Assembly (NCBI GenBank): GCA_963704885.1
Contig: CAVPIB010000001.1
Location: 192,001 to 256,000, forward strand
From: an uncultured Actinomycetes bacterium
GTDB taxonomy: Bacteria > Actinomycetota > UBA4738 > HRBIN12
Length of the DNA stretch: 64,000 bases
Direction: 5' to 3'
Positions 16,219 to 21,029 of the stretch are shown here, in pieces; positions within the stretch are counted from its first letter, which is position 1, and each line of letters begins with the position of its first letter. The translations under genes and the position numbers were made by a program. Under the pieces are notes generated by a model, which saw only the letters and a list, made by a program, of their open reading frames with translations, searched no databases and was not told the origin of the DNA.

Positions 16219-17028
16219 ATGGAGGCGTGGCAGGAAGCGAACGACGCCGCGGCGGCCGCCGGCGTCGAGCTCCGGTCGTTGAGCACCGTCGAGGATGCAG
16301 ACCGCCTCTTAGGCGTCATGATCGCCACATGGGGCGAGCATCAGCTGGTCCCGCGCGAGATGATCAGGGCCTTCGCAGAGAGCGGTAATATCTCGTGGGG
16401 CGCCTGGGACGGCGACCGATTGATCGGCTACGTGCTGGGCTGGGCCGGAGTAACGCCCGGGGACGGCCTTCACACGCACTCCCACATGCTGGCAGCGCTT
16501 CCCGATAGGCGCCACAGGGGCGTCGGCTACGCGCTCAAGCTGGCCCAGAGGGCGCAATGCCTGGATCAGGGCATCACCCTCGTTCGATGGACGTTCGACC
16601 CGTTGTTGTCGCGGAACGCGCACTTCAACCTGACCAAGCTCGGTGCTAGTGCGGATCGGTTCCTACCCAATGAGTACGGCGAGATGACCGACATCCAGAA
16701 CGCGGGGGACCGAAGCGATCGGTTGATGGTTCGATGGGAGCTGGATCGAGGGCCGCGCGGCGCCCCCGTCTTGGACCCGCACCTTGTCCTACGTCGGGAG
16801 GGCGAGGATCCGGATCTGCCGGTTCCATCGGACGTTCATCCACCCGACGGTCCGGCGGCGGTCATCCAGATCCCGCGCGAGTACCACGAACTCCGTGAGC
16901 GCGACCGGGATCTAGCCGACGGTTGGCGCCTGGCCTCGGCGACGGCCTTCTCGCTGTGTTTCGATGCTGGCTTGATCGCCACGGCGTTCATACCCGATTC
17001 GACCTACGTCCTCACGCGCGAGCCATGA
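16219..17028 (+). CDS. GNAT-family acyltransferase (probable D-amino-acid N-succinyltransferase type)
   Basis: HSHMLA...RHRGVGYALKLAQR...WTFDPL..RNAHFN.KLGA; ATGA-coupled to the NSAR/OSBS gene. Confidence 0.8.
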   Translation: MEAWQEANDAAAAAGVELRSLSTVEDADRLLGVMIATWGEHQLVPREMIRAFAESGNISWGAWDGDRLIGYVLGWAGVTPGDGLHTHSHMLAALPDRRHRGVGYALKLAQRAQCLDQGITLVRWTFDPLLSRNAHFNLTKLGASADRFLPNEYGEMTDIQNAGDRSDRLMVRWELDRGPRGAPVLDPHLVLRREGEDPDLPVPSDVHPPDGPAAVIQIPREYHELRERDRDLADGWRLASATAFSLCFDAGLIATAFIPDSTYVLTREP

Positions 17029-18134
17029 CCAAGGTCACCGACATCGAGCTCCGCCTGATCGGGCTGCCGCTGAAGAGCCCGTTCCGAACCAGCTTCGGCG
17101 TGGAGACCGAGAAGGTGTGCGTCTTGGCCCGGATCGCGACGGAGGAGTCTGAGGGTTGGGGTGAATGTGTGGCCGGGCCAGACCCCGGCTTCTCCGAAGA
17201 GTGGAACGAGAGCGCCTGGTTGGTGATCCGAGACTTCCTGGCACCCGCGCTCTTCGCGGCTGGAGACGTGACCATCGACGACGTGGATCGGGTGCTGGGG
17301 AGTGTTCGCGGGAACCCCATGGCCAAGGCGACGGTGATCGACGCGTTCCTGGACGCGGAGCTGAGGGCCCAGGGGCTTTCCCTCGCTGAGCATCTGGGCG
17401 CCGACAGGGATCGCGTGCCTTGCGGTGTGTCCATAGGGATCGCCGACACCACCGTCGAGCTGCTCGAGCGGGTGGAGAGGTACCTGGGCGACGGCTATCA
17501 GCGGATCAAGCTGAAGATCGAACCCGGCCGGGACGTCGAGCGCGTCGGAGCGGTTCGAGCCGCCCACCCGGACATCCTGCTCTCGGTCGACGCGAATGCC
17601 GCGTACACGCTCGAGGACGTCGGCGTCTTCAAGGCGCTCGACGAGTTCGGCCTGTTGATGATCGAGCAGCCGCTGCATCAGGACGACCTGTTCCAGCACG
17701 CCGCACTTCAATCGCAGATCCGAAGCGACATCTGTCTTGACGAATCGATCCGAACTGCGGCCGACGCCTCGGCGGCGATCGAGCTGGGGGCGTGCCGCAT
17801 CGTGAACATCAAACAGGGACGAGTCGGTGGGGTCCCGGAGGCCCGGCGGATCCACGACGTGGCGCGCGCCTTGGGCGTTCCCGTGTGGTGCGGGGGAATG
17901 CTCGAGACCGGGATCGGACGGGCCACGAACCTCGCGCTGGCCTCGATGCCGGGCTTCAACCTCCCCGGCGACACGAGCGCATCCAACCGGTACTTCACCG
18001 ACGACATCACCGAGCCGTTCGTGGTGGATCCCGACGGGACCATGGCCGTTCCCACGGGGCCGGGGATCGGCGTGACCCCACGCCTCGATCGCTTGGAAGC
18101 CTGCACGATCCGCACCGAGACGCTGAGGCGATAG
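17025..18134 (+). CDS. menC: o-succinylbenzoate synthase / N-succinylamino acid racemase (enolase superfamily)
   Basis: RIKLKI (KxK), VDAN, IEQP, LDES, NIKQGRVGG, WCGGMLETG. Confidence 0.85.
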   Translation: MTKVTDIELRLIGLPLKSPFRTSFGVETEKVCVLARIATEESEGWGECVAGPDPGFSEEWNESAWLVIRDFLAPALFAAGDVTIDDVDRVLGSVRGNPMAKATVIDAFLDAELRAQGLSLAEHLGADRDRVPCGVSIGIADTTVELLERVERYLGDGYQRIKLKIEPGRDVERVGAVRAAHPDILLSVDANAAYTLEDVGVFKALDEFGLLMIEQPLHQDDLFQHAALQSQIRSDICLDESIRTAADASAAIELGACRIVNIKQGRVGGVPEARRIHDVARALGVPVWCGGMLETGIGRATNLALASMPGFNLPGDTSASNRYFTDDITEPFVVDPDGTMAVPTGPGIGVTPRLDRLEACTIRTETLRR

Positions 18135-18227
18135 CTCGCGCTTCCTTCTCCGCGCTGCTTGAGCCGGCCCCCAACACGCGCGACGATAGCCGGACGCCGC
18201 GAGCTCGTTGCTGCGGCGTCTCAAACG

Positions 18228-18788
18228 ATGAAGAAACGTGTGGTCCGCGCGGAGGAGTTCGAGGTCGTCGACGAGAGCGGCGGCGTTCGACTGCGCATCG
18301 GCCTGGGCAACGACGACTCGCCCTTCTTCTCCATGCTCGATCCTGCCGGTCAGGTTCGCGCCCGCTTCGGTCTGTCCTCCGACGGGTCGGCGGGCCTCGC
18401 GATCGGCGACGACAACGGCAAGGTCCGCGCGACGCTTGGACTTTCGTCGGATGGATCGGCCAGCCTGGCGTTCGGCGACAAGAACGGACGGATCCGCGCC
18501 AAGTTCGGTCTGGCGCCGGAGGCCTCGCCCACGTTGGGCATGCAGGTCCGAAGCGGCGAACTGCATCAGGTCTACAGCCTGGCCGAACAGGGATCACCGA
18601 CGATGGGCCTGTACGACAAGGCCGGAAAGGTCCGGGTGAGGCTGGGCCTGGCCGCCGAAGGCTCGCCGGTGCTCCGGCTACTCGATCACGAGGGCGAGCT
18701 GCGGGCCGTGGTCGGCCTGGCCGGTGACGGCAGCCCGTTCATCCAGTTCATGGATGAACAGAAGGCGCCCACCTGGACGATGCGATGA
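18228..18788 (+). CDS. Hypothetical protein built of about 7-8 tandem 23-aa beta repeats
   Basis: Repeat consensus P.L.L.D..G.VR..LGL..DGS; ATGA-coupled to the mauD-like gene. Confidence 0.8.
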   Translation: MKKRVVRAEEFEVVDESGGVRLRIGLGNDDSPFFSMLDPAGQVRARFGLSSDGSAGLAIGDDNGKVRATLGLSSDGSASLAFGDKNGRIRAKFGLAPEASPTLGMQVRSGELHQVYSLAEQGSPTMGLYDKAGKVRVRLGLAAEGSPVLRLLDHEGELRAVVGLAGDGSPFIQFMDEQKAPTWTMR

Positions 18789-19294
18789 CGGGGTGGTGGG
18801 CCGCGGCGTTCGTGGCCCAGTGGCTCCTGGTCCTCGTGCTTGCAGTGGTGATCGTTGCGCTTGCCCGTCAGGTGGGAACACTCCATCTGCGTCTCGGGCC
18901 TCGTGGCGCCCTGGAGGTTGACTCCGAGGGCCCCGCGTTGGGCGAGGCGCCGCCCCCCACACCGGGGATCGACGCCTCAGGCGCGCGCGTGCTGGTCGGC
19001 GGTCCCGGCCCGGGGCGCCTGATCCTGTTCTCGTCTCCTTCGTGTCCGATCTGTCAGGACGTGGCGCCTGGGATCCCCGCCGCCGCCGCCGCCGTGCGGA
19101 TGGCCCCGATGGTGCTGCACGACCCCGAGCTGGAACACGTCTACGGAGTGCCGGGGACCCCGTTCCTCCTGGTGATGGACGAGTTCGGCGTGGTCCGCGC
19201 GAAGGGGACCGTGAACAACCTCGAACAGGTCGAGGGTCTGGTGGATACGGCGCTTCGCCGCATCGAGGAGGTGCCGGAGCGACGGGCAAGCTGA
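18785..19294 (+). CDS. MauD-like membrane-anchored thioredoxin-fold protein
   Basis: N-terminal TM, LARQVGTLHLRLGPRGAL, SPSCPIC (CxxC), GTPF, AKGTVNNLEQVEGL. Confidence 0.85.
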   Translation: MTGWWAAAFVAQWLLVLVLAVVIVALARQVGTLHLRLGPRGALEVDSEGPALGEAPPPTPGIDASGARVLVGGPGPGRLILFSSPSCPICQDVAPGIPAAAAAVRMAPMVLHDPELEHVYGVPGTPFLLVMDEFGVVRAKGTVNNLEQVEGLVDTALRRIEEVPERRAS

Positions 19295-19818
19295 TCGCGA
19301 TCGAGCGGGCGGAACGGACCCTCGCGCGGCGAACCAGCCGGCGAGGGTTCCTTGGGAAACTGGGCCGCGGCGTGGTCGCCTTGGCCGGCGGCGGCGTGGT
19401 CGCCACGGCCCTCGCGCCGGGACGGGCCTCGGCGCACCACATCTGCGGGCATCTGTACACGACCGAGTCCTGCCCGCATCCGTTCGGCAAGCTCGCGAGA
19501 ACAGACAACTTCGGTTACCCGGTCCATCCGGTATATGGCTATCCCGTGGACGATGAGGGCGCGGTCTACTCCGATCCAGCGGCGCAGGTCAGGAGCAAGG
19601 TCTGTCAGCAGATCGTGCCGTCGCTCTATCACTTCGTGAAGAACCCTCGCTACGGCGGAGGCTGGACGCGGTGCTGCAACGGCCGTCTGCGCCACATCCA
19701 GGACTGCTGCTCGACCTCTCGGATCCGGATCAACGGCGACTATTCGGTGACCGGCTACTGCCCGACGCGGTTGCGCGTCTTCTGCATCACGTATCGCGAG
19801 TTAGAGGGCACGTGCTAG
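19291..19818 (+). CDS. Tat-exported Cys-rich protein, MauA (amine dehydrogenase light chain)-like; start probably non-canonical CTG
   Basis: TSRRGFL Tat motif, ASA cleavage site, 10 Cys in the mature part including W..CC and DCC; single Trp. Confidence 0.75.
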   Translation: MIAIERAERTLARRTSRRGFLGKLGRGVVALAGGGVVATALAPGRASAHHICGHLYTTESCPHPFGKLARTDNFGYPVHPVYGYPVDDEGAVYSDPAAQVRSKVCQQIVPSLYHFVKNPRYGGGWTRCCNGRLRHIQDCCSTSRIRINGDYSVTGYCPTRLRVFCITYRELEGTC

Positions 19819-21029
19819 ACGGTTCGTTGGTGGTGGCCCTGGTCGTCGCCTCTGCGGTCGCCGGCTGGTCGGCCCTCCACGGACCCTGAGGTCTGTCGAT
19901 GGTGGAGACCATCACCCCCGTGGTCCACGGGGGACGCGCGCGGTGGCTGAGCACGTTGGTGCTGCATACGCTCGGGGCCGCTGTCACGGCGGGCGTGTTC
20001 GGCGCGGCGCTCGGGTGGGTCGGTGGACTCCTGGGCGCGCCCTGGGGGCGACCCGGTCTGGTAGTCCTCGCGGCTTTCGCCGCCGCATATGGGCTCGCCG
20101 AGCTCTCACGACGCGGCCGGCTCCCCATCCCGCAGCTCCGCCGACAGGTTCCTGATTGGTGGCGAACCTTCTTCGGCCGACAGGTGGCCGCCGTCCTTTA
20201 TGGCGCGGGCCTTGGGATCGGGTTCTTCACGTACCTCGCAGAGGGAACCCTCGTCGTCGTGACGTTCGCGGCGCTCGCCAGTGGACGTCCGGAGGTGGGC
20301 GCGCTGTTGATGGCGCCGTTCGGACTGGTGCGAGGGCTCTCGGCCGCCGTAGCCTGGCGATCGGATACGCCCGAACGGAGCCGGGCGCTGGTCGACCGGC
20401 TGGTATCGGCGCCCGAGCGCCGCAGGAAGGTAGCGAACGCACTCGCTCTGGCGGCGATCGTGGTCACGGGCGCCGTGGCCGCGATCCAGACGCCGCGCGG
20501 CGGCTGGCAGGTCTTGGGGGCAGCGGCGCTGGCCGCGGTCTTCTCGTGGAGCGCGGCATCGAAGCTGCTCCCCACCGCGCGATGGCGTCGGGCGCTGGCT
20601 GCCCACCGGCTCCCGGGCGTCGTGGAGCGGATCGCCTCGTGGTCTGTGCCGGTCGGTGAGGCGTTGGTGCCCGTGCTGGTTGTTCTCGGGTATCCGCGCG
20701 TGGGCGCTGCCTGGGCGCTGGTGCTCATGGGTATGTTCTCGATCGAGCTGGTCCGCGTTCGCGGCCTGGTGGGTGTGCGCGTGCCGTGTGGGTGCTTCGG
20801 GGGACGGGGGACCGTCGATGTCCGGCACGCGTTGTTCCGCAACGCCGGGCTCGCCGGGCTCGCGGTGTTCGTCCTCGTTCTCGGGGTCGACCGCGCCGCC
20901 TCGTGGTGGCCGGAGGTTCCAGGCAGAGCGGATCTGGTGCCGCTCCTCGTTGCGGCCAGCGCCGTCTCGGCGGCTATGCTGACGGCCTGGCGGGCGTCTT
21001 CTTGGCTGGCCAAAGGCAGGGGGGCATGA
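19812..21029 (+). CDS. MauF-like/MauE fusion membrane protein with in-frame TGA at 19887-19889 (candidate Sec)
   Basis: GTG 19812 frame reads MLDGSLVVALVVASAVAGWSALHGP*GLSMVETITP; RQVP..W, YGAGLGIGFFTY (MauF/DsbD-like); C-terminal MauE domain with PCGCFGG...RN. Confidence 0.75.

Follow-up and report, generated by a model that had tools for sequence, protein, structure and literature searches.

The window analysed here, a stretch of 64,000 nucleotides from contig CAVPIB010000001.1 of an uncultured Actinomycetes bacterium, raises the question of whether a TGA codon at positions 19887-19889 ends a very short reading frame or is read through as selenocysteine (Sec, U). The original prediction, made from the letters of the window alone, had read the codon as Sec in a fusion of a MauF-like, DsbD-like part with a MauE-like part, in which P-U-G replaces P-C-G, and had expected standard annotation to begin only after it. 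Our comparative sequence analysis leads us to hold, with high confidence, that the TGA is a Sec codon and that the gene at 19812-21029 encodes an integral membrane selenoprotein of 405 residues, in which a MauF-like domain is followed by a MauE domain. The proposed selenoprotein is supported by conservation of the TGA, by an alignment column occupied by either Sec or cysteine, by two hairpins downstream of the codon, and by the Sec machinery of the genome.

Results

The in-frame TGA is conserved and pairs with cysteine in homologues

The arrangement of the gene is as first described, with an overlapping GTG start, a hydrophobic helix, the TGA, a continuing frame and two perfect hairpins whose loops begin with G. 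On our reading of the sequence, GTG 19812-19814 overlaps the upstream open reading frame (ORF) at 19042-19818, which ends in TAG 19816-19818. From this GTG the frame runs through MLDGSLVVALVVASAVAGWSALHGP to the TGA and on into GLSMVETITP, the TGA and the ATG at 19899 of a 376-residue ORF (19899-21029) sharing one frame; translated with UGA as U, the peptide around the codon is ...LHGP-U-GLSMVETITPVVHGGR.

The read-through protein served as the query for six-frame searches of whole genomes. The aligned codon is TGA, within (G/S)P-U-G, in each of the 77 published related loci (42 and 35, from two readings), and likewise in five loci from unpublished genomes that were counted apart (L033, L068, L071, L073 and L080). 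The domain was found in 84 of 401 sampled genomes of the phylum, and 71 of the 401 were tabulated as carrying the TGA form; these two tallies include unpublished genomes, as do the counts for relatives (27/41, among them G008) and the folding set (n = 47) given below. Among the published TGA-form genomes other than the genome of the window (G000), the aligned codon is TGA in 60 of 60. Matches were present in 27 of 41 relatives, and each match that covers the N-terminus has the TGA; all 27 share the (G/S)P-U-G motif and a start codon 22-26 codons before it, the most distant being 27-35 % identical to the window. Length and layout are shared by homologues in 12 genomes of the same genus and also in other families of the order. 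A TGA unique to this sequence had been named beforehand as an observation that would speak against Sec; the codon is instead conserved across related genomes.

Homologues that lack the stop provide the counterpart, since in 13 of 13 the aligned column holds cysteine, within WSPCG. In an alignment of 43 sequences of the domain, the invariant positions are P25, U/C26, G27, Q112, W117, G131, G135, G137, F170 and R174, and residue 26 is the only conserved Cys/Sec column. With a limit of E 0.001, a profile search of the cluster representatives of 1.84 billion proteins returned 5421 relatives. Among the best 150 of these 5421 representatives, 100 span the full length and contain (W/F/Y)SPCG, and 45 start directly after the Sec site (match position 30 or 32; by sequence, 39 + 6), looking as truncated Sec forms would.

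The 25 codons upstream of the TGA vary as coding sequence rather than as intergenic DNA, because their entropy at codon positions 1/2/3 is periodic (0.87/0.61/1.19, compared with 0.76/0.56/1.00 downstream). Of 40 listed loci, 38 have a start codon at a distance of 22-26 codons upstream of the TGA; the exceptional distances are 15 codons in L039 and 11 codons in L033, which lies at a contig end of an unpublished genome, and L040 has no start codon in the searched window. The concern that this segment might not be coding is therefore answered by both the periodicity and the position of the start.

Two hairpins follow the probable Sec codon

In the two helices directly downstream of the TGA, pairing extends to 95.1 % of cells (42 published loci), and 5 of the 14 pairs change on both sides. 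Hairpin 1 pairs in 97.2 % of cells, with one pair switching from G-C to C-G in 3 loci; hairpin 2 pairs in 93.5 % of cells, with 4 of its 8 pairs changing on both sides. Compensatory examples include ATGGT/ACCAT to ATGCT/AGCAT and CCCGTG/CACGGG to CCGCTC/GAGCGG, and also CCCATG/CATGGG. The observed covariation score was reached by none of 500 shuffles, and pairing fell to 38-64 % of cells after the 3' partners had been shifted by 1-3 columns.

Folding of the region from +10 to +48 separates the two forms of the gene: TGA forms have a mean energy of -20.6 kcal/mol and a z-score of -3.4 (n = 47 loci, 5 of them unpublished), compared with -11.7 kcal/mol and -0.19 for Cys forms (n = 13 loci). TGA alleles thus keep the hairpins, as the original prediction had suggested checking. 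We use these z-scores as the hairpin evidence because simply counting stems of 4 or more contiguous base pairs (bp) separates the forms poorly in this G+C-rich DNA (hairpin 1 in 76/77 TGA and 6/13 Cys loci; hairpin 2 in 75/77 and 10/13).

The first hairpin lies 14 nucleotides (nt) after the UGA in 58 of 77 TGA loci. The second is kept where the encoded peptide differs (TPVVHGG, TPLGERG, SPVGEA, TPPVRG), with loops of GUC, GGUC or CGUGC at a spacing of 29-33 nt; in its loop, column G37 never varies and U38 reaches at least 90 % conservation. Loops bound by SelB expose G-U, and models of the bacterial selenocysteine insertion sequence (SECIS) allow a spacing of 16-37 nt. Since its G-U loop and its spacing of ~33 nt fit these rules, hairpin 2 is the likelier SelB-binding SECIS; hairpin 1 may be an accessory stem.

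A distant Sec subfamily with the motif WSPUGESMLSSISPVGE (L111-L137, for example in G178, G082, G089 and G130) keeps both hairpins with other sequences, its hairpin 2 being CCCC-GGUC-GGGG, 29 nt after the UGA. In the three loci whose flanks were read (L047-L049), this subfamily has neither the MauD-like nor the Cys-rich neighbour described below. In each of two genomes, G411 (L108, L109) and G231 (L075, L120), there are two MauF-like paralogues with Sec that belong to different subfamilies.

The genome encodes a selenocysteine system

A genome devoid of selABCD would have spoken against Sec. The assembly of the window, which is 97 % complete, contains selA, selB and selD, all above curated cut-offs, together with a tRNA-Sec (70.9 bits, anticodon TCA). 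Two selD matches with equal scores of 372.7 bits lie on small contigs (G000:C20:5731-6654 and G000:C14:8433-9356), and the pair may represent a duplication or assembly redundancy; both are of the Cys type, because neither has an internal stop. The same genome holds a second selenoprotein gene of canonical type, encoding a formate-dehydrogenase-like (FdhA-like) protein with CNRTUHAPSV (G000:C4, locus L099, position 1615). By eye, this gene has a GUGGUC-GGUCU-GGCCAC hairpin with its loop 18 nt after the UGA, and the minimum-energy fold from RNAfold differs from it.

The co-occurrence check that had been suggested was run for selA, which is above cut-off in 56 of 60 TGA-form genomes as against 4 of 13 Cys-form genomes (G190, G241, G084 and G056).

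The protein joins a MauF domain to a MauE domain

For comparison with authentic Mau proteins, the mau cluster of Paracoccus denitrificans PD1222 was reached by tblastn with the upstream neighbour gene. The domain profile aligns with P. denitrificans MauF (WP_011750949.1, NC_008688.1) over 209 columns in hhalign (99.6 %, E 1.4e-24), which places U on the Cys of the MauF motif TWSPCG and the 25-codon segment on the preceding helix. The assignment of the N-terminal domain to MauF is therefore right, and the MauE half of the proposed fusion is equally borne out by a Pfam match (Table 1). By alignment, Sec replaces the sole invariant Cys of the MauF family, which belongs to the motif S/G-P-C-G and lies where the first transmembrane helix ends.

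The likeness to DsbD that had also been suggested was not supported. No Pfam match to DsbD_TM or DsbD_2 (PF02683, PF13386) appeared at E up to 1, comparison in hhalign with the DsbD_TM protein of the same genome gave a probability of only 1.8 %, and the domain has a single conserved Cys/Sec, so that kinship with DsbD/CcdA was rejected.

Existing resources otherwise have little to say about the MauF-like part. Pfam and NCBIfam gave no match to the first 235 residues even at an E of 1, and no meaningful family for six Cys-form homologues; the N-domain profile had no match among PDB sequences at E up to 10. An AlphaFold2 (AF2) model of the N-domain has six helices, including one at residues 4-23, with a predicted local distance difference test score (pLDDT) of 93.1 and a predicted template modelling score (pTM) of 0.89; a Foldseek search of the PDB with this model found no match up to an E of 0.001. 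From the predicted helices and Arg-rich loops, the positive-inside rule suggests an N-out topology, in which Sec26 would sit where the first transmembrane helix ends on the cytoplasmic side.

Within the order of the window, the MauF domain is fused to MauE. Several loci (the Cys-form loci L083 and L085-L088, and also L074) encode MauF-like proteins that have no MauE fusion and bear another C-terminal extension of ~250-290 residues (~280 in several Cys forms), from which it follows that the partners of the MauF domain vary by lineage. The extension in L083 has weak beta-propeller-like matches (LpqB/TolB-type, E 0.002-0.009), and those in L085 and L086 have none.

Public records begin after the probable Sec codon

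The expected truncation to a start at MVETITP is what the databases contain. The best 120 database homologues all start at MVETI, just past the TGA, so that the public records are truncated; NCBI names the product "MauE/DoxX family redox-associated membrane protein" and labels close homologues "Actinomycetota bacterium". Gene callers start after the Sec because it lies just 26 residues from the N-terminus, and the called products thereby lack both the active residue and the helix before it. Any structure prediction or family model that starts from the deposited sequences is incomplete for this reason.

Genes around the probable selenoprotein locus

The features of the locus are collected in Table 1.

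Table 1 Features of the selenoprotein gene and its neighbours, in window coordinates.
Feature	Position	Strand	Description
menC-like gene	16923-18134	+	
Repeat protein ORF, 209 aa (amino acids)	18159-18788	+	Degenerate repeats of ~20-25 residues (GLSSDGSAGLAIGDDNGKVRA...); stop overlaps start of MauD-like gene; no family match
MauD-like membrane-anchored thioredoxin-fold gene	18785-19294	+	Motif SPSCPIC
Cys-rich gene with twin-arginine translocation (TAT) signal	19306-19818	+	10 invariant Cys, one invariant Trp; putative start, ORF frame opens at 19042
Sec-MauF-MauE fusion gene	19812-21029	+	Probable selenoprotein; GTG start, in-frame UGA, TGA stop at 21027-21029; 405 residues
25 codons before UGA	19812-19886	+	First transmembrane helix, mostly hydrophobic; missing from public annotations; conserved as protein in all loci
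In-frame UGA, predicted Sec residue 26	19887-19889	+	Motif P-U-G, invariant; U/Cys column invariant in the 43-sequence domain alignment
Hairpin 1	19898-19913	+	GATGGT-GGAG-ACCATC; perfect 6-bp stem, loop GGAG starting 14 nt after UGA
Hairpin 2	19915-19933	+	CCCCCGTG-GTC-CACGGGGG; perfect 8-bp stem, loop GUC starting 33 nt after UGA
MauF-homologous membrane domain	19812-20516	+	~Residues 1-235; 6 transmembrane helices predicted
MauE domain	20520-20879	+	Residues 237-356; Pfam PF07291, E 2e-18, 67.4 bits, cut-off 27
C-G-C motif of MauE domain	20787-20795	+	Cys326, Gly327, Cys328; CGCF aligned with CGCF of Paracoccus MauE
Downstream gene, 210 aa	21026-21658	+	Start overlaps selenoprotein stop (ATGA); N-terminal hydrophobic segment; no family match

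Among 41 published TGA loci, excluding the window, the Cys-rich gene lies directly upstream in 38 and a MauD-like gene in 37, and most TGA-form loci have a MauD-like homologue within 1.5 kilobases (kb) upstream; a Cys-rich homologue is upstream in 6 of 13 Cys loci. The MauD-like protein, encoded two genes upstream of the selenoprotein gene, shares 32 % identity with Paracoccus MauD (E 5e-24) and matches the NCBIfam MauD model TIGR02661 with E 1.5e-21 and 76.8 bits, which falls short of the 188.6 set as equivalog cut-off. On the other side, the gene for the 210-residue protein is conserved downstream only in closer relatives.

The mature part of the Cys-rich protein comprises ~130 residues, with the motifs HICGH..TT.SCPHP, GGGW.RCC, DCCS.S..RINGD and GYC...VFC (homologues L024-L088). 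Its AF2 model has a pLDDT of ~90 in the mature part and below 50 in the signal part. By sequence it has no match in Pfam, NCBIfam or the PDB, and a Foldseek search with the model returned nothing at E up to 0.001. Its place after the MauD-like gene resembles that of mauA after mauD in the Paracoccus mau cluster.

Discussion

Weighing the readings of the TGA codon

The main rival to Sec takes the TGA as a true stop and owes its standing to the TGAGG sequence, which is invariant and doubles as a stop and a Shine-Dalgarno element, with GAGG 7 nt before ATG 19899. A hydrophobic mini-protein of 25 residues (19812-19889) would then be followed by coupled re-initiation at this ATG, with the hairpins tuning the coupling, and gene callers do yield exactly the corresponding 376-residue product. 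Such a split, however, would drop the family's only invariant Cys/Sec, and would do so precisely in the genomes with selA, in the proportions given above. The GG of TGAGG is moreover the Gly codon of the invariant P-C/U-G and is present in Cys forms too. The presumptive restart codon, Met30, is conserved within uninterrupted Cys forms, where it is ATG in 10 of 13, and is not of a start type in 8 of 77 TGA forms, 2 of which have no in-frame start within 17 codons. Taken together, we regard re-initiation as quite improbable.

Sec could also be dispensed with if the UGA were read by a near-cognate tRNA for Trp or Cys, or if the lineage had changed its code, and the 4 of 60 TGA-form genomes without an intact selA would be at home with either explanation. 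But TGA terminates this very gene in most loci, which argues that it is not generally reassigned in these genomes, and two stable hairpins are found in TGA forms and not in Cys forms. The strong association with selA, together with the tRNA-Sec and the second canonical Sec gene in the genome, also stands against this explanation, to which we assign a very low probability. A nonsense mutation or sequencing error in a decaying gene has nothing but the bare in-frame stop in its favour and is next to inconceivable: the same codon recurs in all of the 77 published related loci, across many genera and families, and the peptide on both sides of it is conserved, which excludes a pseudogene or an error.

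We therefore return to Sec, against which several observations weigh in part or in detail. The four TGA-form assemblies that lack an intact selA comprise G140 and G268, which have no match at 98 % completeness, G035, with only a fragment, and G253, with frameshifted pieces. Covariation in the hairpins is limited because the region also codes for a conserved peptide, and the score by itself is weak evidence, because the control slid by -1 scores almost equally (0.132 as against 0.133, with 54 % of cells pairing). Hairpin 1, at 14 nt, is nearer to the UGA than the SECIS spacing quoted above, and a search of 19700-20100 against Rfam gave no matching family, only a chance match to a small RNA (E 2.5). 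The fusion is not universal, as the Sec-MauF domain occurs by itself in family f9, where no MauE was found in the ~1.5 kb that follow. For the functional model set out below, the Cys-rich protein was rejected as a relative of MauA, since BLASTP and hhalign align the TAT signal only and no PDB relative was found. Profiles for the large and small subunits of methylamine dehydrogenase (TIGR02658 and TIGR02659; MauA, MauB) found neither in the 97 % complete genome, and the control for these profiles on the Paracoccus record was positive with 398 bits.

A possible membrane redox relay

If the codon is read as Sec, the UGA would be decoded by the genome's SelA, SelB, SelD and tRNA-Sec, with the conserved downstream hairpins supplying the SECIS. 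The fusion protein, with the Sec of its MauF domain and the CGC of its MauE domain, could form a membrane thiol/selenol relay with the MauD-like protein (CPIC), in which Sec26 would be the reactive nucleophile. The role of membrane electron conduit in the original prediction is likewise hypothetical. The relay might mature the co-encoded TAT-exported protein with its 10 Cys residues, which is a candidate substrate of the module, through disulfide formation, isomerisation, reduction, or the making of a cross-link or cofactor.

A bolder model can be built by analogy, although we think it unlikely. Here, MauF-type proteins would be single-Cys/Sec catalysts, and Sec-MauF, MauE and MauD would constitute a dedicated maturation machine for a new class of proteins, exported by the TAT route and sharing 10 Cys and an invariant Trp, that might carry a protein-derived cross-link or a quinone-like cofactor. 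The selenol would serve chemistry that sulfur does poorly, and the unusually positioned pair of hairpins would act as a two-stem SECIS peculiar to this lineage. The cofactor idea is modelled on the small subunit of methylamine dehydrogenase, to which the Cys-rich protein is unrelated in sequence and predicted fold.

From studies of Paracoccus mau mutants, MauF has been known since the 1990s as genetically required but biochemically unexplained. The natural exchange of Sec and Cys at its one invariant Cys points to the reactive centre of MauF, so that a redox or chalcogen-transfer role becomes directly testable. The occurrence of MauD, MauE and MauF homologues beside a Cys-rich secreted protein, with no methylamine dehydrogenase found, suggests that the module is used more widely.

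Relation to known selenoproteins and Mau proteins

Judged from sequence, the proteins very probably constitute a previously unlisted and mis-annotated selenoprotein family in Actinomycetota, and a common one within this phylum, given the number of sampled genomes tabulated as TGA form. Table 1 of a 2026 review (PMC13188914) has 119 selenoprotein families or subfamilies, and MauF, MauE and DoxX are not among the entries of that table. The terms Mau, methylamine and DoxX have no occurrences in PMC12013277, PMC13326102, PMC13188914 or the preprint 10.64898/2026.04.03.716425. We found no paper linking MauF, MauE or DoxX to selenium in a search of paper texts; the candidate lists of deep-Sep, BSepDB or the groundwater study of metagenome-assembled genomes that the review cites may already hold the family.

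The closest known system is MauF of P. denitrificans, with which the N-terminal domain shares 32 % identity, the RRQVP and GLG motifs, and an alignment of W-S-P-C-G with G-P-U-G; both proteins also have MauD and MauE as companions. They differ in that the protein described here has Sec for Cys and is fused to MauE, and the Paracoccus protein has an extra N-terminal helix that the window protein lacks. A mauA, mauB or mauG context is also absent, and the family is actinobacterial and has no Pfam or NCBIfam model. The MauE/DoxX family redox-associated membrane protein (PF07291) is a second point of reference, in that the C-terminal part of the window protein matches PF07291 and has the CGCF of Paracoccus MauE. 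The MauE/DoxX name covers only the C-terminal third, however, and the N-terminal 235 residues with the Sec are a separate MauF domain.

DsbD/CcdA proteins resemble the domain in crossing the membrane several times and in having a reactive Cys within S-P-C where a helix ends, and a redox relay is plausible for both. The likeness to DsbD_TM in hhalign is local, extending over 49 columns. DsbD needs two membrane-embedded Cys residues, whereas the window domain has one conserved Cys/Sec.

Integral-membrane selenoproteins are themselves known or predicted in bacteria, and those in the table of the review (PMC13188914) include a YeeE/YedE transporter (GUxSG), a putative mercuric transport protein, the SO_0444 Cu/Zn efflux transporter, the permease SaoP and the rhodanese/DsbD-fusion-like TsoB. 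As far as the entries of that table go, the present family resembles them in that all are membrane proteins of bacteria whose functional Cys is replaced by Sec, and in being found through Sec/Cys pairs and downstream hairpins. It differs from them in being mainly actinobacterial and in carrying its Sec 26 residues from the N-terminus.

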